Positions 12,493 through 43,495 of a stretch of DNA of 64,000 nucleotides are shown piece by piece. The translations under genes were made by a program, and so were the position numbers. The stretch is from an uncultured Nitrososphaerota archaeon (GTDB taxonomy: Archaea; Thermoproteota; Nitrososphaeria; Nitrososphaerales; CADDZS01): contig CAWCYI010000001.1 in the NCBI GenBank assembly GCA_963799845.1, positions 131,842 to 195,841 on the forward strand. Direction: 5' to 3'. Numbering within the stretch: position 1 is the first letter of the stretch; every line of letters begins with the position of its first letter. Under the pieces are notes generated by a model. That model saw only the letters and a list, made by a program, of their open reading frames with translations, was not told where the DNA came from and did not search any database.

Positions 12493-13616
12493 ACCTGGCC
12501 GACATAAATTATTAGACTGAAAGGGCCACAGACCTAGACATTCTCATTTTTGGCCAACTTCCCTTCCTATCTCAGGTTGTATGTCTCGATTACAGGCACC
12601 GAAGGAGATTGTTGAAGAGGCTTATAGAGAGGAGAGGGACGCAAACGTAAGCAAGAGGATATTCCTCGTTCTGAAGGTCAAGTACGAGGGTGTCCCGGCG
12701 TCGCACGTAGCAAGGGAAGTTCACCGGCACAAATCATGGACGACACCGTGGCTTAGACGTTTCGAGAAAGATGGGCTAGAAGGACTCAAGACGATGGAAA
12801 GGAGCGGGAGACCTCCGAAGCTCGATCACAACAAGTTCATTGCGGTGAAGAGGAAGGTCGTGAAGAACGAATGCGGCTGGACCGTGAAGGAGGTCAGGGA
12901 GATGATCCGCAAGGAAGCAGACGTGGCATACACTGAGAGACACATCTACAGGTTGATGCAGAAGTGGGGAGTGAGAGCAATTGTCCCTGACAAGAGGTTA
13001 CTTCACAAGGCTTCCCTCGAAGAGAGGCTCGAATTTAAAAAAGGACCGCAAGACTCCTCAGGAATATCCCGGAAGGCTTCACCGTAGCATCCGAAGACGA
13101 ATCAATCTTCGTCCAGAACATAGAAACCAAAAGGGTGTGGGCGGTCAAAGGGATTCGACCGATTCGGATTGTGTCAGGCTCGCACGGCAACACCGTGGTG
13201 TTTGGAGCGATCAGCCTGGACGGGACACAAATCTTCAGGCAGTACGAGAAATTCAATGGCGAGACATTCCTCGACTACCTGAAGAAGGTGCACAGGAAGT
13301 TTGGATCACTCTATCTCTTCCTTGACAAAGCAAGGCAACACCACAAAACCAGGATCGTAACTGATTATTTGGGTAAGAACAGGAAGACTCTCAGAGTCAG
13401 ATGGATCCCGACAGCTTCGCCAGAGTTCAACATGATGGAGGAGTGTTGGCGCGAGGGTGAGAAGGATCTCTCAAGGCTTCCAACCTTTCCGACGTCATTG
13501 AAAGAACTGAAATCAATCCTGGCAGAATACTATCGAACGCGAAGGTTTTGCTCGCATCTTGACATGAAGAAATTCCTTCTGACCAACAGGTGTCTATGAA
13601 CTTATGTCGGCCAGGT
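12493..13616 (+). mobile_element. IS630-family insertion sequence
   Basis: Terminal inverted repeats ACCTGGCCGACATAAATTATTAGAC / GTCTATGAACTTATGTCGGCCAGGT, flanked by TA duplication at 12491-12492 and 13617-13618. Confidence 0.93.
12581..13599 (+). CDS. IS630 transposase (HTH ORF plus DDE ORF in the -1 frame, joined at TTTAAAAAAG ~13034-13043)
   Basis: HTH 'RSGRPPKL'; DDE motifs EDES, LDKA, SPEFNMMEECW. Confidence 0.9.
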
Positions 13617-14293
13617 TAATTTGCTTCACGAGCATCTTCTCCTCGGCAACCTTTCGAAGCTTTCTCGCGATGGGAACATTTATTCCGTATTTTTCTTTGA
13701 GCTCGTTACACTTTTCATACAGCCCCATCTCCCATAATTTGCCACTCCTATCAGACTGGATTATACATTCTTCGAATACAGTTTTGTAGTCTACGCCTGA
13801 CCTAGCGATCAGAGACATGTCATCAAGATCCCGGTCTCTGTCGGTCACACCTTTCATCAAGAATATATCTTCTTTTGACAACTCGGACAAAGACAGTTTT
13901 GTCTTGCTGCGAGAGAGTTTTGAGCGCGACCGAATGCTCTTTGTCAGCGCGAGCTTGTTTGCGACAACTTTAGTAAAAATATCCCATCGGAACCCATCAT
14001 CATTTTCATAGATTCGTGCAGAAAGGTCTTGGTAATCCTTCGTCATCGAGTTGATTGGCAGGGATCTGTAACCCGAGTTCTGCAATGCCGTAATCAGCAT
14101 CTCTAATTGGGCTCTATTTTCCACAACGATGTCTATGTCCTTTGTTCCGGCCTTGAGTCCATTTGTTGCCATGACAAAGCCTCCGGCTACGTAGATCTTG
14201 AGAGGGTTCTCAAGAGCCTTCTCAAGCTTGTTCAGTTCATTTTCTATGTACTCTTGACTGAATTCTTGTCGTCTATTTTGCAACGTTAATTTC

Positions 14294-15383
14294 TAGGAGT
14301 TACGCGGTTGACCCAAGAAGATAGATTGGGTGTGCAATGTCAGCTCCTTATCGCATCTCTGACGATTCTCGCCTTCGCTTCGTACCAGCTTATCCCGGTC
14401 ATCAATCTGCACAATTCTAGACGTATGAACGCCCTTATTGACATGTGGATGTGATTCAGAATGGATGTCGCCTTCCTGACCTGAGCCCTCTCAATGCCAC
14501 AACACTGCTTGACTCCTCTGTGGTACTCCTCGATTCCCCATCCTTGGTCAGAGAGTTCATCTCTCTTTTCCTCATTCATCCCAACGTCATCGGTAGCCCA
14601 GTGTTCAATGTCTCCTTTCTTGGAGGCTGTCCTGAACACCCTGACCATTCCGAATCCCATGAGATGAACCGTGGTTCCCTCAGGCGGGATCTCCACGTCC
14701 TTGATTGGTTTGTTTCCTTTTTTTCTGCCCGTTGGATTGACGAGCCTGTTCTCCTTGAGGCGGCAGAAGAAATGCCACCCGAGCTCCCTTGCGATGAGCT
14801 TCAGATTTTCCATGCTCGAGTACCAGCTGTCAAAGAGGACGTATTTTGGTTCCATCCCTCTCTGCTTTGCAACCAACAACATGTCCTGGAAGTGATCGTT
14901 CTTGGTGAGACCGTCTTTTGACGCATTGTAGAGTCTAAAGTCACATGGAATGAGGGCGTTACCATCGCTCCATAGTGTTGTGATGAGATTTATCCCCTTC
15001 ACCACACTGTGGTGTTTTCCGCTCCAGTGGTACGTGACGTAATCCATCTTCTCCGCGTACGGTTTGTCCAGAGTTGAATCATCGACTATCAGTACTCCTC
15101 CCGCAGTAACGGCGATGATCCTCTTCGCCTCATCCCAGAGCGCTTCTGTATCCGCAGGCAGTCTCTCCAGAAGGCGGGTGAAGCTATCGTGTGCTGGCGG
15201 CGTGACTCCTGCATCATCATCAGGCTGACATCTAGCAGCTTCGGTGCAAGCGAATGATTTCTGGGATGCTATCAGGAAGTCTATGTAGTCATTGTCATCG
15301 CATTTTGGAGGGTTCATGCAGCGTCTGATGAACCAGAGAAACAATCCTGGCCAAATTCTTTTCGGCCAAATGCGTAACTCCTA
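14294..15383 (-). mobile_element. IS701-family insertion sequence
   Basis: Inverted ends TAGGAGTTACGC; flanking direct repeat ATTTC at 14289-14293 and 15384-15388 (9-bp TAATTTCTA if the ends are taken as GGAG/CTCC). Confidence 0.88.
14340..15317 (-). CDS. IS701-family DDE transposase
   Basis: MNPPKCDDNDYIDFLIAS N-terminus, VDDSTLDKPY, FDSWY, WGIEEYHRGVKQ. The stop at 14340 probably comes from a 1-nt insertion (other frame reads ...YIAHPIYLLGSTA*). Confidence 0.88.
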   Translation of the reverse strand: MNPPKCDDNDYIDFLIASQKSFACTEAARCQPDDDAGVTPPAHDSFTRLLERLPADTEALWDEAKRIIAVTAGGVLIVDDSTLDKPYAEKMDYVTYHWSGKHHSVVKGINLITTLWSDGNALIPCDFRLYNASKDGLTKNDHFQDMLLVAKQRGMEPKYVLFDSWYSSMENLKLIARELGWHFFCRLKENRLVNPTGRKKGNKPIKDVEIPPEGTTVHLMGFGMVRVFRTASKKGDIEHWATDDVGMNEEKRDELSDQGWGIEEYHRGVKQCCGIERAQVRKATSILNHIHMSIRAFIRLELCRLMTGISWYEAKARIVRDAIRS

Positions 15384-16338
15384 ATTTCTATTCCGTAAAC
15401 GTTAGCCTGTTCCTTGAGCTCTCCCCAACTTGGTAGTGGCCATACGCGCTCCTTGCCTTTAGAGTGGATATAGCGAACAATATTTTCTACGTCCCTAGTC
15501 AAATTGTATCTCTGCGATCTTTTCATCAGCGATTCTAAGTCCATTTTTTTGTACTTCTTAAGAATGAGGAGTAAGGCGTAGATCGCATAAGTTTGGCTTC
15601 CCGGGTCAATCATCAGCGTATGAAGAACTATATCATCCAAAGATAGCTTTGCGCCACCTGGCGAGTAATAGTAATACGTCTCATTGGTGAACAACTGTAT
15701 TTCGTATTCGGCGTAGACGCTCAGAGCTGTTCTAAGGAAGTGCTTTGGAATATTCTTCCCATCTTCGTCATCCCCCTTTCTTACTTTGAAAAGAAAGCTG
15801 TATCCTTTCTGCCATAATACGACTGCATTTGAAGGCAGGATTTCCTCTGCAAACTGTCTAGTAATATGATCGGCATACTCTCTTGCAAAGTGGCTTATCC
15901 TCGAGTTGAGCGTAGTGTTGTTGCTGGTATTCTTTGGAATCAGGCCGTGCATTGAGAGGTTTCGTTGCGCACGCCATTTTGTTGTGTCAGACAGCCCTCT
16001 TTCAAAATCACTTTCTCCTGTCGTTCTTGTAAGAAGTACAGCCATGTTAGAATAAGAAAGCACTTTTTCCCAAGGCACGTAAGGCTCGGCTTTTACTAAC
16101 TCAGAGAGAAGCTGGGCATAGTTTGCTTCAGCTATCACAGCTGTCTTCTTCATTCCCTCTCTCCTCGTCTCCACGATCCCCTTGTCCTCGAGGCTTTTGA
16201 TTACCCGTGATGTCCAGCCCTCTGATGAGCGTAGTCTTTTTGCAGCTCACTTATCGATAGCTTACGCTGGTGGGAAATTGTTCTTGTTGCTGCTATTTCG
16301 TCCTTAGTAAGGGCGTAATCGGGCATCGGTTCTTTCAT
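15384..16338 (-). CDS. wHTH-containing putative antitoxin/regulator of the nucleotidyltransferase; 3' end interrupted by IS701, frameshift near 16245
   Basis: N-terminus from ATG 16338 plus 'SEGWTSRVIKSLEDKGIVETRREG' wHTH. Without the IS it ends ...VYGIEINVAK* (stop 14273-14275), overlapping the NTase start. Confidence 0.75.
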
Positions 16339-16343
16339 AGCAT

Positions 16344-16392
16344 TATTTCATAAGAGTAAAATACTATATAAGGACTTGCGTCTTATGCAATA
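16344..16392 (-). promoter_or_regulatory. Inverted repeat flanking the TATA box of the wHTH-NTase operon
   Basis: TATTTCATAAGA (16344-16355) and TCTTATGCAATA (16381-16392), one mismatch, with minus-strand CTTATATAG between them. Confidence 0.6.
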
Positions 16393-16648
16393 GAAGCTGA
16401 TGTCTTTCCCATTTTACCAACCGGACTTCGGTCGGATCTGTGGAGGGCACTTCAAGCTAAAACTTGAAGATCTTCTCATGTGCGATTTCTTCCATTCTAA
16501 TTCCACTATAGGCCCTTCAATCTCTGCCACTGAAGGAATATGCTTTGGACTATCGAAAACTCCAGAAAAAGGAGCCTTGACAGGAGAAGAATGCTTCGCC
16601 TGTAAATAGTAGACAGTTGATAGCTCAGAGTGGGAAACGAGCGATGTA

Positions 16649-16792
16649 ATGGTAAGTTCAGAGTTTTGTGATATGTGCGGATCTGACGAAGAAGTAAGTT
16701 ACTGCTCGACCCACAAGAAATTTCTCTGTTTGACCTACGATTGGAAATTGCATTCGGTGGAAATTAAGCGGGCGTACGAACTCTACAGTTAG
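16649..16792 (+). CDS. 47-aa B-box-like zinc-finger microprotein, copy 1
   Basis: Hand translation MVSSEFCDMCGSDEEVSYCSTHKKFLCLTYDWKLHSVEIKRAYELYS; below the ORF-track cutoff. Confidence 0.65.
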   Translation: MVSSEFCDMCGSDEEVSYCSTHKKFLCLTYDWKLHSVEIKRAYELYS

Positions 16793-16806
16793 TAGCAGAT
16801 CAATAA

Positions 16807-17043
16807 TTGACTACCGAGGCGTTCCTTCTGATCAACGTGGATCCGGGGACCCAAGCGCAGGTAACCCAGGAGTTGAAATCAATTCAAAAAGTCAGGAAGG
16901 TCCATCCCACGTATGGAGTCTACGATTTTATAGTAAAGCTAGAGGCCGAAACTCAGGAGGAGCTCAAGGAAGTTATTACTTATCAAATCAGAGCGCTGCG
17001 AAACGTTAGGACAATACTTACGATCGTTGTTGCAGGGAAATGA
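16807..17043 (+). CDS. Stand-alone Lrp/AsnC ligand-binding (RAM) domain protein, copy 1
   Basis: AFLLINV..G...TYGVYDFIVKLEA...IRAL..VRTxLT; no HTH. Confidence 0.9.
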   Translation: MTTEAFLLINVDPGTQAQVTQELKSIQKVRKVHPTYGVYDFIVKLEAETQEELKEVITYQIRALRNVRTILTIVVAGK

Positions 17044-17103
17044 AAAGTAAAACAATTCACCGGCCGCAATGAAATGAAGTATTCAGGAAGACGAATCTCT
17101 TCA

Positions 17104-17211
17104 TTGCCTCTGATGGTGACCTGTCAGAACTGCGGTCATCCCTTTCCCTCTAAAGTCCTGCAGTCAAGTCTTTGGATGACTCAATCTCCTGTCAGCGTTT
17201 CGCAGTCTTGA
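17104..17211 (+). pseudogene. Zn-ribbon microprotein start (CQNCGH), apparently truncated
   Basis: MPLMVTCQNCGHPFPSKVLQ...; the second CxxC is absent. Confidence 0.4.
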
Positions 17212-17312
17212 TATTTCAGTGGACTTTGATTCGCCGATTTCTGCGAACCGGCAAGTACCGTCTTATCCTGCGAAGTAACTTGTGAAGATATAAGACAGGT
17301 TAATCGCTCTCT

Positions 17313-17456
17313 ATGTGTGAGAAACGTAGCGACTTTCCTAACGAATCATCTACAGCCGAGACGGGCTGTTGCACGTGTTCATGCCCACGGGATGCAATAT
17401 CGACCGCTCTCCTGTGGGGAAAAATCTGCAGCCAGTGCCAGCACACTTTTTCTTAA
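17313..17456 (+). CDS. 47-aa Cys-rich microprotein
   Basis: MCEKRSDFPNESSTAETGCCTCSCPRDAISTALLWGKICSQCQHTFS; GATATAAG box ~25 bp upstream of the ATG. Confidence 0.45.
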   Translation: MCEKRSDFPNESSTAETGCCTCSCPRDAISTALLWGKICSQCQHTFS

Positions 17457-17560: not shown

Positions 17561-18196
17561 ATGCTGAACCAGGAAGTCAGCGATTTTCTGAAGGAATTTG
17601 ATGCTGGGACGCATGCTGTCCTCTTCTATGATAATCAAGAGTCTAAACGCGAACTTCTATTCAGTCATCTGAAATTTGGTCAGAATTATCAGGGCTTAGC
17701 CTACGTGTGTTCAGAGGAAAGCCCGGAGCAGATTCGCAGCGAGATGATACAATTTGGGTTAGAAGCTAATACTGTCAAGGGAAACCAAAGATTGACAATT
17801 GCCAATTATGACGACGTTTACATCGTAAACGGAGAATTGAACATACCTGCCATCATTGGCAAATTCGCAAGTCTCGTGGATTCCTACAAAGAACGCGGCC
17901 TTTCTGGATTGAGAGCTGCCGCAGAGATGTCCTGTTTTTTCCAACATGACAAGGTGGAGGAGATGATATCTTATGAGAAGGCGCTGCACAGAAAGTTTTC
18001 ATTTTCCGCCAAAGGAATTTGCGCTTACAATGTTATGGAAATGCTAAGGTCAGGCCACATGGACGTCTTCATGAGTCTTGTCAAGGCTCACGATCCAATT
18101 ATCTATGCAACCCCGAGGGGATTCTTGCTCTTGAAACCTCAAAAAGTTCAACCAAGAGACTTTGAAACGGTGATGCAGGTAAATGTCCGGAACTGA
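17561..18196 (+). CDS. Stand-alone MEDS (DcmR-like sensory) domain protein
   Basis: GTHAVLFY, GLRAAAEMS, YEKALH, GICAY, HDPII motifs. Confidence 0.85.
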   Translation: MLNQEVSDFLKEFDAGTHAVLFYDNQESKRELLFSHLKFGQNYQGLAYVCSEESPEQIRSEMIQFGLEANTVKGNQRLTIANYDDVYIVNGELNIPAIIGKFASLVDSYKERGLSGLRAAAEMSCFFQHDKVEEMISYEKALHRKFSFSAKGICAYNVMEMLRSGHMDVFMSLVKAHDPIIYATPRGFLLLKPQKVQPRDFETVMQVNVRN

Positions 18197-18928: not shown

Positions 18929-20158
18929 ATGATGCAGCTTCCGAGACAGATCTGGATAGTATTCGTACTCGGAACTCTGAATTCTCTCGGTTGGTCTGCG
19001 ACGATGCCGTTTTTGGCCGTTTACCTCGAAGTCGCAAGGCATGTTCCACTTTCGATCATCGGGTTGGCCTACCTTGCGACAGGACTAGTCACACTTGTAA
19101 GTCAGTTGATTGGCGGACGATTGACCGATTCGCTGGGGCCCAAGCGGGTTTTGCTGACAGGATATGGGAGTTCAATTGTAGCTTCAATCGTTCTCGGATT
19201 AACTCTACAGTTTAGATCGAGCGTCGAAATCATTCTTCTACTTTATCCAATATTCAGCTTTGTAAGGACATTTTCGCAGCCAGCAACTTTCGCGATCGTG
19301 TCAGGCGAAAGTACGGGCAATGTAAGAACGGGCTTCTCCATACTTGCCATAGGAGGAAATCTCGGATTTGCAATCGGTCCGGCACTTGGAGGAATACTCG
19401 CCCAGGTCTACAGTTATTCGACCGTATTCTTGCTGAGCGCCGCTTCCGCCGTAGTCGTCGGACTAATCACACTGTTTATGATAGAAGGAGGTCCCATCGT
19501 GAGTCGTACAAAACTTTCTCAACCGGTGAAAAGGTTTCTCAACTGGAGGGAAGACAAAAATCTGATTGTTTTTCTAGTCCTCACTCTCGCCTCTTTTCTC
19601 ATAGTCGGCTACGAGACAACTCCGCTTTCTCTTTACGTCGCAGGATTTCTTCAGCTTTTCAAACGAACAGATAGGCTTCCTCTTTGCAACCAATGGCATT
19701 GTAATCGTGATACTTCAGCTTCCACTTACGAGGTTGATCGAAAAAAGATCCGAACGCTAGTCATGCCAATGATTGCTTCCTCCATAGCTGCTGCAGTTGC
19801 GTTCTTCGTAGCTTCGGTATCCACCACTTTTCTTCAGATGGAAATCGTCACTTTCATCGTCACTCTCGGAGAAATCTTTCAAACCGTTCCGGCTCAAACA
19901 GTACTTTCGCTTTTCTCTAAATCCGGGAACAGAGGAACCTATCAGGGATACTATGCCGCCGTTACTAGCTCAGGCCGCTCACTTGCAAGCTTCTTCGGAC
20001 CATTGAGCTTCAGCGTGTTTTTCTTCAGGCCGAGTTGAGCTTGGATTCTGGTCGGAGTGATGTCGTTGGTTGTCGGTTTTGCTTTCCTTTTGCTCTCACC
20101 GGGTCTCCAAAAGGACTACGAAAACCAGAGTCGATCCGATGAGCAGTTAGTGGATTAA
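18929..20158 (+). CDS. MFS transporter (frameshifts at ~19655-19745 and ~20035)
   Basis: GGRLTDSLGPKRV motif A, GFAIGPALGG; alternative frames restore TM8 and the last TM. Confidence 0.85.
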
Positions 20159-38636: not shown

Positions 38637-38689
38637 TAGACACCCTATTAAGGAGTCTATTATAATTAGACACCCCATTAGGGAGTGTA
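38637..38689 (+). promoter_or_regulatory. Tandem 23-bp palindromic operators around a TATA-like spacer
   Basis: TAGACACCCTATTAAGGAGTCTA (38637-38659), TTATAAT, TAGACACCCCATTAGGGAGTGTA (38667-38689). Confidence 0.8.
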
Positions 38690-38696
38690 TTCTGGA

Positions 38697-39635
38697 ATGC
38701 AGTGGCTACCACCATGGCTTGCAAGAGCTTATGCTAAGATATACATCGAGAAGCGGCTAGATCCATTCGGGTTTTCTCAAGCAGCTAGAATACTCGACAT
38801 TTCAGATGAAAGGCGCCTCGCCAAAACGCTTGCAAAGCTCAGATCATCCGGCTATATGCAGGCAACAAGAGACCCAGCAGACTCAAGAAGGAAACTCTTC
38901 AATCTGCTGGATCCCGTCAGTACGACCGTTGCGTTTGCAATCCAATCAAGGACAAAGAGTTCTGAGTTGAGCGCTAAGCTCGAAGCTGCATCCAATTTCC
39001 TGCACTACTATGTTGGCGGCTCATACGCTGCTTATCAATACCATAGATATTCAGCGCCAGGCAGTGTCGACATATCGGTCCTACCAGATGAGCTTTCGAC
39101 TTGGGTTGCATTAGTCTCGGACAAGGATACGGCAATCTCGATAAACGAGACGCCAGCTGAAAAAGCGTTGACAATAAACGTTCATCTCAAGACCGATTAT
39201 GACGCGAAACTTGACGAGGACAGCATAACTATCAGCGGCATCAGGTATCTATCTTCTGAGCTTCTCATTGTCTTGGGCTTGGCAGAAAATCAACCCAGCC
39301 TAGAGGATGTAATTGCAATCCTCATCGTGCAGAGAAAGAAATTGGATTGGGATAAACTGACAAGTCTTTGCGAGGAATATAGCACCTCCAGATACCTCGC
39401 GACGCTTCTAGAACTTCTGAACTTTGAGTCTTCAAGAATCCTCTTTGATCCGAAGAGAATCAAGAAGATCGCGGTAAGAGCTGACAAAAAAGTAAGACTA
39501 GATTTCCCATTCGATAAGAAGTCTGAACCTCCGGACGACACTTATTCTGAGATTTCGTCCAAATGGAACGTAGTCCCGCACGTCAGACGGTCTTTTCTCT
39601 CCAAGCTTGTAACAGATCTGGTGAGATCAAAGTGA
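38697..39635 (+). CDS. wHTH-containing putative antitoxin (AbiEi-like) with an NTase-like middle domain
   Basis: 'FSQAARIL...LAKTLAKLRSSGY...DSRRKLF' wHTH; 'YYVGGSYAAYQYH...VDI'; GTGA overlap with the next gene. Confidence 0.7.
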   Translation: MQWLPPWLARAYAKIYIEKRLDPFGFSQAARILDISDERRLAKTLAKLRSSGYMQATRDPADSRRKLFNLLDPVSTTVAFAIQSRTKSSELSAKLEAASNFLHYYVGGSYAAYQYHRYSAPGSVDISVLPDELSTWVALVSDKDTAISINETPAEKALTINVHLKTDYDAKLDEDSITISGIRYLSSELLIVLGLAENQPSLEDVIAILIVQRKKLDWDKLTSLCEEYSTSRYLATLLELLNFESSRILFDPKRIKKIAVRADKKVRLDFPFDKKSEPPDDTYSEISSKWNVVPHVRRSFLSKLVTDLVRSK

Positions 39636-40375
39636 CCACCGAGGAGAAAAATGAGGTAATTGTTGAACGAGAGAGCTTGGAAGATCTCGGAAAAATTCTT
39701 CATCAGAGTCATAAGATGGGCATTGGCCTAATGCTGATAGGGGGGTACGCGGTGGCAGCTTACACCAGAGGATACCGATACACCAAGGACATTGATCTCG
39801 TTGCTGAAAAACAATCATTGGGAAAACTAAGGGGTCTTTTGAATGGTTTAGGTTACTCGATAAGAAACACAGATTTTGGCGTTGCGGGAACAAAACGCCT
39901 AAGCAATGATGATGATAACTTCATTGACCTTCATATAAGCGTCGGAAAGGTTCATGACATATCGACTAATAACGACTTTCCCGTAGATCATTCCCTTTTC
40001 AAGAAAGCAAAACGTCTGGAAGTAAAGGGATTCTATTCGGAGACTACCTTAGTAAAAGCTCCGATCGTCGACCTAGAGACAATCCTAATTCTGAAATTAA
40101 TTCCCCGGGGGAGGGACAAGGACGCGGTCGATCTCATCTCTATCATCATTGACAGGAGCAAGGATGTTGATTTTGGACTGATGGTGAAGATTGTGACAGA
40201 GGCTAATTTGAGCGTTCATCTCCTTGATCGAGTTCGAAATTATGCGACTAGAGTAAAGAAGGGAGAACTAGACAAAATTTGGTCGGGTATGACTGGTGCG
40301 CGACTCTCCTTCGTTCAGAAACGTGACTTGTTACGGTTCTTCGGAAGGCTGGCCGATCAGCTTAGGTCGACGTAG
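39632..40375 (+). CDS. AbiEii/DUF6036-like nucleotidyltransferase (putative toxin)
   Basis: LIGGYAV...RYTKDIDL, LKL...RDKDAVD. Confidence 0.82.
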   Translation: MTTEEKNEVIVERESLEDLGKILHQSHKMGIGLMLIGGYAVAAYTRGYRYTKDIDLVAEKQSLGKLRGLLNGLGYSIRNTDFGVAGTKRLSNDDDNFIDLHISVGKVHDISTNNDFPVDHSLFKKAKRLEVKGFYSETTLVKAPIVDLETILILKLIPRGRDKDAVDLISIIIDRSKDVDFGLMVKIVTEANLSVHLLDRVRNYATRVKKGELDKIWSGMTGARLSFVQKRDLLRFFGRLADQLRST

Positions 40376-40633
40376 TAGTACTAAAACCCCGAGACGCATC
40401 AGGGATAAACGGGGCGACACCTTTTTCGCATGTCTGAAGATCTCTTAGTGGATTCTGAGCCAGCTGGTTCGAAACCACCAGATCTGCAAGCTGGCATGTA
40501 GCACTCGCCACTGAAAAAATATACTTTTTTGGATTTTCGAAGTCTCCACAAAACTGAACTTCAACAGGGGATAAATGATTCATCTGTATATACTAGACAG
40601 TATGATAGCTTAGAGTGGGAAACGAGCGATGTA

Positions 40634-40778
40634 ATGGTAAGTTCAGAGTTTTGTGATATGTGCGGATTCTGACGAAGAAGTAAGTTACTGCTCGACCCAC
40701 AAGAAATTTCTCTGCCTGACCTGCGATTGGAAATTGCATTCCGTGGAAATTAAGCGGGCGTACGAACTTTACAGTTAG
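40634..40778 (+). CDS. B-box-like microprotein, copy 2 (one extra T near 40668; keeps CLTCD)
   Basis: Same sequence as copy 1 but TGC at codon 30. Confidence 0.55.
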
Positions 40779-40792
40779 TAGCAGATCAATAA

Positions 40793-41028
40793 TTGACTAC
40801 CGAGGCGTTCCTGCTGATCAACGTGGATCCGGGACCCAAGCGCAGGTGACCAAGGAGTTGAAATCAATTCAAAAAGTCAGGGAGGTCTATCTCACGTATG
40901 GAGTCTACGATTTTATAGTAAAGCTAGAGGCCGAAACTCAGGAGGAGCTCAAGGAAGTTATTACTTATCAAATCAGAGCGCTGCGAAACGTTAGAACAAC
41001 GCTTACAATGGTTGTTGCAGGGAAATGA
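40793..41028 (+). CDS. Stand-alone Lrp/AsnC ligand-binding domain, copy 2 (G lost in a homopolymer at ~40831)
   Basis: EVYLTYGVYDFIVKLEA...VRTTLTMVV. Confidence 0.8.
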
Positions 41029-41121
41029 AAACCAAAAACAATTCAACAGTCCCAATGAAATAAAGTATTCAGGAAGACGAATCTCTTCATTGCCTCTGAT
41101 GGTGACTTGTCAAAACTGTGG

Positions 41122-43495
41122 TCATCCTACATATTGAAAAATCTCGGAAATAAATTGAGACTTTCCTCGGCCAGATGTGAATAGATAGAGTTCCTTCTTG
41201 CTTCTGGTTAGAGCAACGTAAAACAGTCTCCTCTCCTCTTCAAGTTTGTCCTCCCCCTCCTCTTGTCTATTTCTTGCAATTTCGAGTAACTTTTCCGCTT
41301 TGATCTCAGAGGGAAATCCAAACTCTCCCTTGATACAACCTAGCAACAATACGTATTCTGCTTCCTTTCCCTTTGCTCTATGAATAGTCACAAAGTCCAG
41401 GTCAAGGTTCGGATGATTTGGAAACTCGAGAGCAAGCAAATCAAGCTGATCATTGTATCTGGAAAGAACCAGGATTCTCTCGCCAATACTTCTCTTCTGG
41501 AGTAAGCGCTCTATCAGATCCTTCGCGGCTTTTCAGCTCCCATTTGTCGTACTCCCTCGATGCCATATTTTCTGGCATTTCTTCTACAACAATTGGATAA
41601 GATAGCTTGGACTTCGAGGTGACGTCCTTCCTCATTTGAAATCTGTTCAATGAAATCACATGGTTGGAGGCCTCTACCACGTTCTTCGGGCACCTGTAAT
41701 TCGTTCCGATGAAACTTTTCTCGGGAAATGCGAAGTTTTTATCGAAATGTAAAATGTTGTAAACATTTGATCCAGCGAATGAGAAGATGTTCTGCCAGTC
41801 ATCACCCACACAGAAGAGGTGAGAGTCCTCCCCGCCCACGATACATTTGATCAGCTCAAGTTGAGTGTCTGTAATATCCTGAAACTCGTCTATCAGGACA
41901 TGAGTGTACTTGCGTTCCAAATCCTTCCTGTGCTTCCTCGCAACCTCAAGTGCGAGACCTATCATGTCGTTAAAGTCAATCATGTTGTTTGATTTCAACC
42001 GCGATTCGTACTCCTGCCAGACAGGAACGACGAAAGAGAGAAACGCCTTCTGTCTTCTGTTCAATTTCCTTGTTTCTGCCTTTTGACGAATCTCTCCGAT
42101 TCCAAGACCGTTTGACTTCGCAGTACTAATGAACGAAAATGTGAGGATTTCAAGCGGATCATTTCTTGGAAGAAGGTTGTACACGTTACTTACCACTTCA
42201 TTCGTAGAAAGCTCGGTTAAGACGACTCCGTGCTCTTCGAGCGTCTTTTTCAAATCATGAATCAGCGTTCCCTCGGTCCATTCATAATGGAAGGTCTCAA
42301 TGAGTGTGTGTTTATGCTTCGCAAACTGCCCTCGTGACCACTCCATACGCTTCTGGTAGCGTTCTGAAGGATCTTCAGACTTGTCGACCTCGCCGTATGC
42401 GAACCATTCTGGTACCTTTTCCTGTCTGTCAACGCCACGGTGCTCAATCCAGATATCATACTTCGACAAGTGAAAATCAGGTCGATAGGTTCGATAATAG
42501 ATACTGCTATCTGCCCATGTAGCAGGATCCGCATGCTTGAATTGCACTTGATTTAGGAAGAGGAAATTTGCGATGTCACGTTCTGCAACGGAATCGACAC
42601 GTTCTGAAGTGAGAGTCGTATATCTTTGGTTCCTCAAGTACTCGCAGGACTTTTGCTTATCTGGAAAGCTATCTGCCTCTAAATCGTCGTTCGGATACTC
42701 TATTGCAAACTGAAGCATTGACAGAGCGAAATCGTGGTTGCTCGACAATTGTCTGAGAGACTTGCGAATGATTTCATGTTGATCATTGTCGCCAGCAACA
42801 TCGTTTCTGAAATTGGGAGAATCTTTTGCCAGTTCGCGCCCAAAAGAGTGAAACGTCCTAATGTTCAAAGCAGAAATTCCATATTTTTTAGAGAGACGCT
42901 CCTGCATTTCTCTTGCAGCCGTCCTTGTGTATGCTAGAGCGAGTATATTGTCCGGCGAAATTCCTCTTTCGACCAGGAACGCTAGCCGTGCAGTCAATAC
43001 GCTCGTCTTTCCAGAGCCAGCCGCAGCGACAACTAGGTTGTAAGCGTCGTCCTTCACCACAGGTTCAAGTTGTTGCTGCGGATCCAGCGAAGCTTTTGCA
43101 AAGAAATCGGCGTGTCTTGCTGTGATCAGCTTGACGTAATCCCTAACGTAGTATTCTAGAAAGGAATTCAGCGACTCGATCCGTTTTTTAGAAGAGAGGA
43201 CTGATTGCTTCTCTTTTTTTGAGAGAAGTGGACGAAAAATTAGAGCATGGCTGGTAGAGTCTGCCATGTATTTCAAAGATTTTTCAATATCTAATCTCAT
43301 CTTTCCTCTAAGGTATTTGTTGAAAGAGCGGTAGTCACTCAGCTCTTTGTCAAGTTGATCAAGTCGTCCAGCAATGTTCTTCACTGCTTTTGTAAGTCCT
43401 AGCCTGAATACAACAATTCCAACAAGAACGAAAATCGTGATAGAGAATGAAATAATAAGAACTGTTTCCGATGAACTCGAAAAGAGTGGGTTCAC
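41122..43495 (-). CDS. UvrD/helicase IV-like SF1 helicase with N-terminal TM and embedded PD-(D/E)xK-like nuclease (frameshifts ~41440-41520)
   Basis: AAAGSGKT, RTFHSF, DEFQD, VGDDWQ, TIHRAKGKE, EERRLFYVALTR; insert 'YRPDFHL...IWIEH'. Confidence 0.85.

Follow-up and report, generated by a model that had tools for sequence, protein, structure and literature searches.

The locus examined here raises the question of whether an archaeal microprotein can be a B-box, and whether it works together with the Lrp-type gene that lies beside it. The window is a 64,000-nucleotide (nt) stretch of contig CAWCYI010000001.1 (positions 131,842 to 195,841, forward strand) from an uncultured Nitrososphaerota archaeon, and the element in question is an open reading frame (ORF) of 47 amino acids (aa) at 16649–16792, hereafter the finger. 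The original prediction, made from the letters alone, held this ORF to be a B-box zinc finger coupled to a stand-alone Lrp/AsnC ligand-binding (RAM) domain. The reading reached here, to which a probability of about 70% is given, is that the finger belongs to a real family that is related to the B-box and restricted to one archaeal lineage, that its association with the Lrp domain is a local cassette, and that the first copy in the window is compromised. In other words, the B-box idea holds at the level of the family, and the quoted peptide, the locus and the Lrp coupling fail.

The finger is the first gene of a short repeated cassette, the first copy of which is made up as follows.

16618..17141, plus strand: cassette copy 1 (repeat search), comprising the finger, the RAM domain and the 5' part of a zinc-ribbon ORF
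16601..16608, plus strand: putative TATA-like box TGTAAATA, 48 nt 5' of the ATG of the finger, a candidate promoter by archaeal architecture
16649..16792, plus strand: finger ORF, 47 aa, ATG start, frame intact, sixth zinc ligand changed from Cys to Tyr (ORF and family alignment)
16736..16738, plus strand: codon 30 of the finger, TAC (Tyr); Cys in copy 2 and in all other family members
16807..17043, plus strand: stand-alone Lrp/AsnC ligand-binding (RAM) domain gene, 78 aa, TTG start, 14 nt past the finger stop; PF01037
17074..17211, plus strand: third small ORF, 45 aa, a truncated remnant of a zinc-ribbon microprotein (Zn_ribbon_4, E 0.012)

The claimed 47-aa ORF is present, begins with ATG and encodes MVSSEFCDMCGSDEEVSYCSTHKKFLCLTYDWKLHSVEIKRAYELYS. 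The gene without a helix-turn-helix (HTH) that had been placed 14 bp beyond it was also confirmed: its product matched PF01037 with an E-value of 2.4e-11 (43.8 bits against a gathering cut-off of 25) over residues 8–75 of 78, and no HTH family was retrieved for it at E <= 10 in the Pfam search. The C-terminal part of the finger had been quoted as ...CLTCDWKLH. The DNA has TAC (Tyr) there, not TGC, and the ORF reads ...FLCLTYDWKLH, with Tyr at the sixth ligand position. Cys30 is absent from this copy alone among the 36 unique family sequences.

The reality of the family was evaluated in the source genome (4.6 Mb in 9 contigs, 86.7% complete) and beyond it. The finger had 12 matches in its own genome, 9 of them at E <= 6.2e-11, which included six further full-length intact paralogues together with truncated ones; all 12 sit in open frames of 26–80 aa. 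Family loci were also found in the genomes of relatives, in a species collection (5 loci) and on metagenome contigs (32 loci). A full-motif ORF was obtained at 48 of the 56 loci examined, corresponding to 43 distinct loci because five were counted twice, and the other eight were the frameshifted second copy of the window, truncated or partial copies and contig ends. The ORFs are 44–52 aa long, start with ATG, TTG or GTG at one conserved position, and have the consensus ligand spacing C-x2-C-x8-C-x2-H-x4-C-x2-C-D-x3-H. All 36 unique sequences have Cys7, Cys10, Cys19, His22, Cys27, Asp31 and His35, and 35 of them also have Cys30. Moreover, the pooled ratio of non-synonymous to synonymous variation (pN/pS) for 34 unique coding sequences was 0.231 when read in the ORF frame and rose to 1.31 and 1.04 when the frame was shifted. 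Homologues keeping the Cys/His pattern and a dN/dS-type selection test had been named in the original prediction as ways of checking it, and both came out in favour of the gene: the pattern recurs at 43 distinct loci with the seven ligands fixed in 35 of 36 sequences, and selection is purifying in the coding frame only. These features argue that the finger family is real, protein-coding and under purifying selection.

Such a family is easily overlooked. Just five members were present among 5.8 billion predicted proteins, and NCBIfam held no family with a meaningful E-value for the finger; hence, the gene is usually not called, and the family illustrates how such small genes escape annotation. 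TATA-like boxes (TGTA[AT]ATA or GTTA[TA]ATC) occur 38–56 nt upstream of the finger ORF in most lineages, and the box TGTATATA, the counterpart of the one at 16601–16608, was found before the paralogues at loci L002 and L003. Judged by archaeal promoter architecture, the box at 16601–16608 is probably the promoter of the finger. The possibility that the ORF serves the next gene as an upstream or leader peptide was rejected, for that gene is convergent in most loci.

The first seven ligands of PF00643, the B-box family (zf-B_box), follow the consensus C-x2-C-x7-10-C-x2-[C/D/H]-x4-C-x2-C-x3-6-H. When aligned with CONSTANS and COL2, the archaeal family conforms to it, the exception being the window ORF with Tyr30, and the alignments are ungapped across all seven ligands. 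According to profile searches against the PDB, a 7-sequence family profile matched 7vsp, 7vsq and 7wsj with E-values of 1.9e-5, 2.9e-4 and 3.4e-4, the next match lying at 0.15. A 36-sequence profile gave 1.3e-5, 1.3e-5 and 2.3e-5 for its top three matches, followed by the RpoM-2 zinc ribbon at 0.042. With both profiles, the matches below E 1e-3 were exclusively CONSTANS/COL2 tandem B-box structures. The same outcome was obtained on a much larger scale. Against 1.84 billion representative proteins, the family profile had 78 matches at E <= 1e-3. Six of these belong to the family and two are degenerate short relatives; the rest are proteins of 97–763 aa, mostly with two matched stretches. PF00643 was found in all 23 of the long matches tested, of which 21 reach or exceed the gathering score and 7 have a CCT motif match as well (E <= 0.01); the tested proteins are eukaryotic and of the BBX type. 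The best match outside the family was a CONSTANS-LIKE 9-like protein of Tasmannia lanceolata (E 1.6e-9), whose second box has C-x2-H as its second ligand pair, as in the archaeal family. The likeness in spacing to the plant CONSTANS/BBX box that had been proposed for the window peptide was thus borne out as a family consensus and by both profile searches. Furthermore, the nearest clusters in the ESM atlas were three zf-B_box clusters with scores of 0.89, 0.87 and 0.79, which are leads only; two of them were mostly Streptophyta. Among the weak Pfam matches of the own-genome paralogues, zf-B_box was the commonest (6 of 7, best E 5.1e-4, all under 24.1 bits), and the member P0009 exceeded the gathering score with 26.2 against 24.1 bits. 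The AF2 model (pLDDT 81.2) is a beta-hairpin followed by a helix, onto which Foldseek placed the CONSTANS/COL2 chains with root-mean-square deviations of 1.6–1.9 Å over 30–33 columns at 33–40% identity.

Several results weigh against the B-box assignment. Copy 1 of the window has no zf-B_box match at E <= 10 in Pfam, and when the Pfam model was run over 13 genomes of the archaeal family the cut-off was reached in one (G011) only. Pfam by itself appears marginal for the assignment, with most members below the gathering score. As the original prediction had noted in describing the pattern as lacking the last His, no His or Cys that could be the eighth ligand is conserved after His35 in the 36 unique sequences. 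Acidic positions are frequent there (Glu38 in 27 of 36, Glu/Asp44 in 24 of 36), and it is a speculation that one of them stands in for the missing ligand. Neither Foldseek against the PDB nor a wide VIA-align search gave a significant or discriminating match; the fold searches on the predicted model are compatible with a B-box and leave B-boxes and other fingers undistinguished. The checks of fold and domain named in the original prediction came out divided, with relatedness to the B-box established at profile level and the window ORF itself lying below Pfam detection.

These points can be read as signs of convergence, in which the family would be unrelated to B-boxes and would represent an independent small treble-clef or zinc-ribbon finger that arrived at the same Cys/His spacing. 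The domain has about 35 residues and its ligands supply much of the score, FtrD-like weak matches occur in 6 of 7 members (best E 0.0048), and besides the RpoM-2 zinc ribbon at E 0.042 there are TransFacS4 matches in 6 of 36 sequences (best E 0.017). The absence of the eighth ligand and the indecisive fold searches also fit convergence, as does a tree of archaeal and BBX boxes in which the archaeal clade stands apart as monophyletic (0.977) with an unsupported sister placement (0.417). The BBX boxes in this tree had been picked by the archaeal profile, and the origin of the family is not inferable from it. Convergence is nevertheless unlikely. The PDB E-values part B-boxes from every other finger class by more than 3 orders of magnitude, the long matches among the 1.84 billion proteins are B-box proteins in every case tested (23 of 23), and the two groups have a non-ligand core in common, consisting of an aromatic residue before Cys3, the F/L-L-C motif, an invariant Asp after Cys6 and a hydrophobic residue before His7. 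On the profile evidence, the family is very probably homologous to B-boxes, as a divergent variant nearest to the plant BBX/CONSTANS type that has seven of the eight canonical ligands. Because the eighth ligand is missing, it is filed here as a divergent B-box-like variant and not as a canonical member.

The distribution of the finger is narrow. Within the taxonomic family of the source genome, the family profile matched 5 of 12 genomes (two genera). It matched none of 28 genomes from other families of Nitrososphaerales and none of a further 250 in a sample from across the phylum, of which 217 were of high quality. A pattern scan of the species collection gave 5 loci, all in Nitrososphaerales or Thaumarchaeota records. 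Among the genomes searched, the finger family is found in one Nitrososphaerales family only. The B-box is usually regarded as a eukaryotic protein-interaction module, known from TRIM ligases and from the plant BBX regulators of light responses and flowering. The finger family, by contrast, is prokaryotic and consists of the bare domain, multiplied in one archaeal lineage, with plant BBX proteins nearest by sequence and regulators beside it. Full-text searches of CC-licensed papers and preprints brought up no description of an archaeal B-box in the titles, abstract openings and B-box passages covered; the sole prokaryotic mention met there was a passing one of B-box-containing variants of bacterial DUF2089 proteins (PMC11237479). 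With plant BBX proteins as the nearest relatives, a very narrow distribution and an excess of regulator genes among the neighbours, a further scenario is allowed. A BBX B-box of plants or the green lineage may have been captured horizontally by the ancestor of one soil-dwelling Nitrososphaerales family, cut down to the bare seven-ligand domain and expanded to at least 7 paralogues, each of which would depend on zinc and serve a neighbouring winged-helix factor or RAM assembly as its anti- or co-regulator. This scenario is a long shot. If true, archaea would have evolved independently a counterpart of the regulation by B-box microProteins known from plants. The family also offers a minimal natural system in which to ask about the role of a lone B-box, its folding with seven ligands and a possible exchange of the domain between eukaryotes and soil archaea.

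The coupling to the Lrp domain was explored by tblastn with the RAM domain. Of the 51 loci searched, four have a RAM domain behind the finger (L001 to L004), and all four belong to the source genome. L001 is copy 1 of the window, L004 is the frameshifted copy 2, and L003 is the sole locus in which both genes are intact. The closest metagenomic relatives of the same subfamily (L053–L056, 83–87% identical) have different neighbours. At locus L014, the RAM gene is accompanied by an intact 4-Cys zinc-ribbon gene and the finger is absent; its homology to the window cassette starts just past the finger stop. The third ORF of copy 1 corresponds to this zinc ribbon: it retains the first CxxC alone, and its homology to the other cassette copies stops at 17141, the intact counterpart being a 4-Cys zinc ribbon of about 60 aa (CQNC...CPKC) at 1790–1993 of L014 (contig C5), beside the RAM gene. 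A C-terminal stretch similar to the zinc ribbon also closes a 220-aa membrane-like ORF in L088. As a separate observation, the genome holds 20 stand-alone RAM-domain matches at E <= 0.01, many in frames of about 76–117 aa, which is an unusually large HTH-less set.

The pairing could in principle be a dedicated two-gene sensing module, in which the finger docks on RAM oligomers and through them on full-length Lrp. The two genes are separated by a 14-nt gap that lacks a second TATA-like box, the arrangement recurs in four cassette copies, and both genes are intact in L003. Stand-alone RAM proteins make hetero-octamers with full-length Lrp in vitro, as described in PMC2995911, and 20 Lrp-domain matches (E <= 0.01) are available in this genome. 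Such a module is improbable in view of the locus survey, in which the adjacency is confined to 4 of 51 loci, all recent duplicates of one genome; the L053–L056 relatives have other neighbours, in L014 the finger is missing although the Lrp and zinc-ribbon genes are kept, and in L002 the finger is kept beside a decayed Lrp gene. The window copy itself has a finger without one ligand and a RAM domain with E31K and L34P. When the L003 finger was co-folded with two copies of its RAM partner, the score was 0.00 in both runs, for which controls were absent, and the result weighs neither way. Coupling to Lrp is therefore not a property of the family, being seen at 4 of 51 loci in one genome with one intact pair, and this analysis gave no support for a link, be it physical or functional, of the finger with the Lrp domain. 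Judging by the loci compared, the Lrp pairing is best taken as a one-genome accident of duplication. One finger lineage would have been joined to a RAM gene and a small zinc-ribbon gene in this genome alone, and the resulting cassette of about 0.5 kb would then have been copied several times and have decayed in most places, with locus L003 on contig C6, outside the window, as its presumed intact archetype.

The state of the second window copy bears on both the quoted peptide and this course of events. The following features lie there.

40603..41127, plus strand: cassette copy 2, 91–98% identical to copy 1, by repeat segment (four segments)
40634..40778, plus strand: finger ORF of copy 2, Cys30 kept (TGC), 1-nt insertion (extra T at 40667/40668), stop at 40670–40672
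40793..41028, plus strand: RAM-domain gene of copy 2, 1-nt deletion (GGGG to GGG) at about 40829–40831, matching 16845
41122–43495, minus strand: UvrD-type helicase, split into a 681-aa N-terminal ORF and a 105-aa ORF with the UvrD_C end, about 10 nt apart

A pattern search allowing up to 3 mismatches recovered copy 1 only, and copy 2 emerged from the repeat finder; the pattern search missed it because copy 2 differs by an indel. The frame that begins at the ATG at 40634 ends after ...CDMCGF (ORF 40529–40672), and the remainder of the finger (...SDEEVSYCSTHKKFLCLTCDWKLH...) lies in a different frame (ORF 40653–40778). A single frame encoding the peptide CDMCGSDEEVSYCSTHKKFLCLTCDWKLH, on which the original prediction rested, exists nowhere in the window. 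Given the extra T at 40667/40668, the peptide is a splice across two frames, stitched over the frameshift of copy 2, and is encoded by neither copy. The fragment at 40653–40775 matched zf-B_box with an E-value of 0.043 and 14.4 bits, the gathering score being 24.1. Between the two copies the finger has 4 synonymous changes and 1 non-synonymous change, the latter at the ligand codon 30. The third ORF of copy 2 lacks a start codon (ATG to ATA at 41062).

Both window cassettes thus look like damaged, decaying duplicates. In copy 1 the finger has Cys30Tyr and the third ORF is shortened; its RAM domain has E31K, where the remaining 9 of 10 aligned paralogues all have Glu, and in the same alignment L34P at a conserved position. 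In copy 2 both genes are frameshifted. The finger and RAM genes are both intact in L003 (contig C6), the RAM gene of L002 has decayed with stop codons, and the further cassette copies at L002 and L009 are degraded by stop codons or truncation. The break in the UvrD gene and the two frameshifts of copy 2 make three frame breaks in about 900 bp.

Repeats at which short-read contigs break are also places where polishing tends to fail. The defects may accordingly be errors of assembly, with both cassettes intact and expressed in the organism, as each of the two indels of copy 2 alters the length of a run by one base (T to TT, GGGG to GGG), the short-read contigs do break at the cassette repeat, and the genome stands in 9 contigs at 86.7% completeness. 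The pattern of damage makes this rather unlikely: the third frame break, in the UvrD gene, sits just beyond the repeat; the ATG of the third ORF of copy 2 was lost through a substitution; Cys30Tyr, E31K and L34P in copy 1 are also substitutions, which are untypical of indel errors; and the cassettes at L002 and L009 are likewise degraded by stops or truncation. In four soil-metagenome DNA runs, contigs identical to the unique flanks 16300–16654 and 16980–17372 were found. The region compared was 16300–17400, within which 16655–16849 fell outside coverage, as did the Tyr codon and the indels of copy 2.

The neighbourhoods of the family were analysed with labels from Pfam on representatives, propagated by BLASTP, and the downstream gene was the first called gene of at least 90 aa. 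A convergent gene of winged helix-turn-helix (wHTH) type was the first downstream gene in 21 of 34 loci, comprising ComA with a MarR-like extension (10), PadR (7), and ArsR/DUF7347, TFE-alpha, full-length Lrp/AsnC and HxlR (1 each); the wHTH part of the ComA fusion is weakly supported, with E-values of 5.6e-4 to 9.5e-4. The other downstream genes were an MscS-like channel (4), PNPOx (2), an aldehyde dehydrogenase (1) and unknowns. Counted by distinct neighbourhood types, 6 of 13 are of the wHTH type. The background in the 4.6-Mb genome was 115 matches to six wHTH Pfam families, overlaps included, which is a base rate of about 2–3% of genes on the assumption of about one gene per kb. The binomial tail was 3.6e-7 to 2.4e-3 at base rates of 2.5–12%. 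This figure is to be read with the reservations that the pattern was noticed post hoc, that the neighbourhood types are partly dependent and that convergent genes are not co-transcribed.

Two of these neighbourhoods are worth describing on their own. At L057, L060–L063 and L065, the subfamily-B finger is flanked on one side by a divergent gene, whose product is a 149-aa cyclic-nucleotide-binding protein or a 666-aa adenylate cyclase-TPR protein, and on the other by a convergent PadR gene. The upstream gene of subfamily B encodes the cyclic-nucleotide-binding protein in 4 cases and the adenylate cyclase in 2, which may hint at a link with cyclic AMP signalling. At L007, L034, L067 and L074–L080, a gene is present (for example at 400–1374 of L007) whose 325-aa product joins phosphosulfolactate synthase (ComA, E 2e-63) to a MarR-like winged helix at the C-terminus, the latter a weak match (E about 1e-3); this fusion gene is conserved and convergent to the subfamily-C finger genes.

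A mechanism can be proposed for the family with due reserve. The finger is predicted to bind zinc in a cross-brace, with site 1 formed by Cys7, Cys10, Cys27 and Cys30, and site 2 by Cys19, His22 and His35 together with a carboxylate, a water molecule or a residue of a partner. The family has grown to at least 7 full-length paralogues per genome, and every lineage has a conserved neighbourhood of its own. The finger would then act as a protein-protein interaction module that modulates regulators, mostly of the winged-helix type, rather than binding DNA itself. That it is a protein-protein modulator of transcription regulators is a tentative proposal, which may well prove wrong. CONSTANS B-boxes are thought to mediate the multimeric assembly of CONSTANS complexes (as discussed in PMC11132886). 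The alternative is a nucleic-acid-binding zinc-finger regulator that acts directly on DNA or RNA, like Brz or some Haloferax micro-proteins. Small archaeal one-domain zinc-finger regulators are indeed known from the published descriptions (PMC2253796, PMC6562870, PMC10716476), and regulator genes lie next door to the finger. This alternative is nevertheless very improbable, since all 36 unique members are acidic to neutral, with a median isoelectric point of 4.86 (range 4.41–6.80) and a median net charge of −4 (range −6 to 0), and B-boxes are known for protein interaction and oligomerisation (PMC11132886).

Compared with known systems, the finger is closest to the plant BBX/CONSTANS proteins (PF00643; 7VSP, 7VSQ and 7WSJ), with which it has in common the spacing C-x2-C-x8-C-x2-[D/H]-x4-C-x2-C-D-x3-H including the Asp after the sixth ligand, core residues, a Foldseek identity of 33–40%, specific profile matches and a predicted beta-hairpin and helix. 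It differs in being archaeal, in being a whole protein of 44–52 aa with a single box and in lacking a conserved eighth His, whereas plant BBX factors are 100–600 aa long and carry tandem N-terminal boxes and a CCT motif. The nearest likeness in architecture is to miP1a and miP1b, small B-box-only proteins reported to act by contact with the regulator CONSTANS (PMC4807768), each of these minimal proteins being essentially one B-box. Unlike miP1a/b, which pair with the B-boxes of the larger CONSTANS, the archaeal finger has no larger protein with the same domain in its genome. All own-genome matches lie in frames of at most 80 aa, and the plant-style microProtein logic of titrating a larger relative does not apply; any target of the finger must therefore be an unrelated protein or another paralogue.

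The downstream 78-aa product resembles DM1, DM2, DM3, STS042 and TvDM in being an ordinary RAM domain without an HTH, and oligomerisation and small-molecule binding at dimer interfaces, known for DM1 and others, would be expected of it by class. As described in PMC2995911, hetero-oligomers of stand-alone RAM proteins with full-length Lrp regulators are established in vitro for DM1/FL11, and the class binds amino acids. From the stand-alone RAM proteins as characterised there, the window gene differs by the zinc-finger gene upstream and, in copy 1, by E31K and L34P. The haloarchaeal C(P)XCG proteins of Haloferax volcanii and Brz of Halobacterium salinarum are below 70 aa, often unannotated and associated with regulatory or stress phenotypes in the accounts cited (PMC11241148, PMC10716476, PMC6562870, PMC2253796). 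The finger is like the C(P)XCG proteins in size class, archaeal host and single zinc-finger domain. They have two C(P)XCG motifs in a one-zinc ribbon, whereas the finger has one CxxCG (F-C-[DE]-x-C-G) followed by C-x2-H and C-x2-C-D, and its host belongs to Nitrososphaerales. CsfB/Gin is the zinc-finger anti-sigma-G factor of Bacillus. The finger has no significant sequence relation to it, and CsfB/Gin is bacterial with another ligand pattern.

The further surroundings of the two window copies contain the following genes.

12581–13599: IS630-like transposase upstream of copy 1, with the HTH part (12581–13087) and the DDE_3 part (13135–13599) in different frames
13594–14283: DUF6036 nucleotidyltransferase gene near copy 1
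14340–15344: DDE_5/DDE_Tnp_1 transposase, 334 aa, upstream of copy 1
15314–16174: HVO_2833_C-domain gene
17561–18196: MEDS sensory-domain protein, 211 aa, downstream of copy 1
18929–20038: MFS transporter ORF after the MEDS gene, with a Pfam match to model positions 1–223 of 347
38685–40375: overlapping genes directly upstream of copy 2, for a 316-aa protein without a Pfam family and a 270-aa AbiEii-like nucleotidyltransferase

Both window copies are in mobile or eroding surroundings: copy 1 adjoins two transposases and the DUF6036 gene, and copy 2 lies between the AbiEii-like nucleotidyltransferase and the split UvrD gene. To judge by its position between the DUF6036 and HVO_2833_C genes, the transposase at 14340–15344 may have split a two-gene module, and from the extent of its Pfam match the MFS ORF may be disrupted. 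Kinship of the regulator-like proteins that flank the two copies was considered and rejected, for there is no similarity between them. The AbiEii-like nucleotidyltransferase of copy 2 and the DUF6036 protein of copy 1 have the nucleotidyltransferase motif region alone in common (E 0.004), and their partner proteins are unrelated. The 316-aa and 270-aa AbiEii-like pair at 38685–40375 resembles a type IV toxin-antitoxin system.

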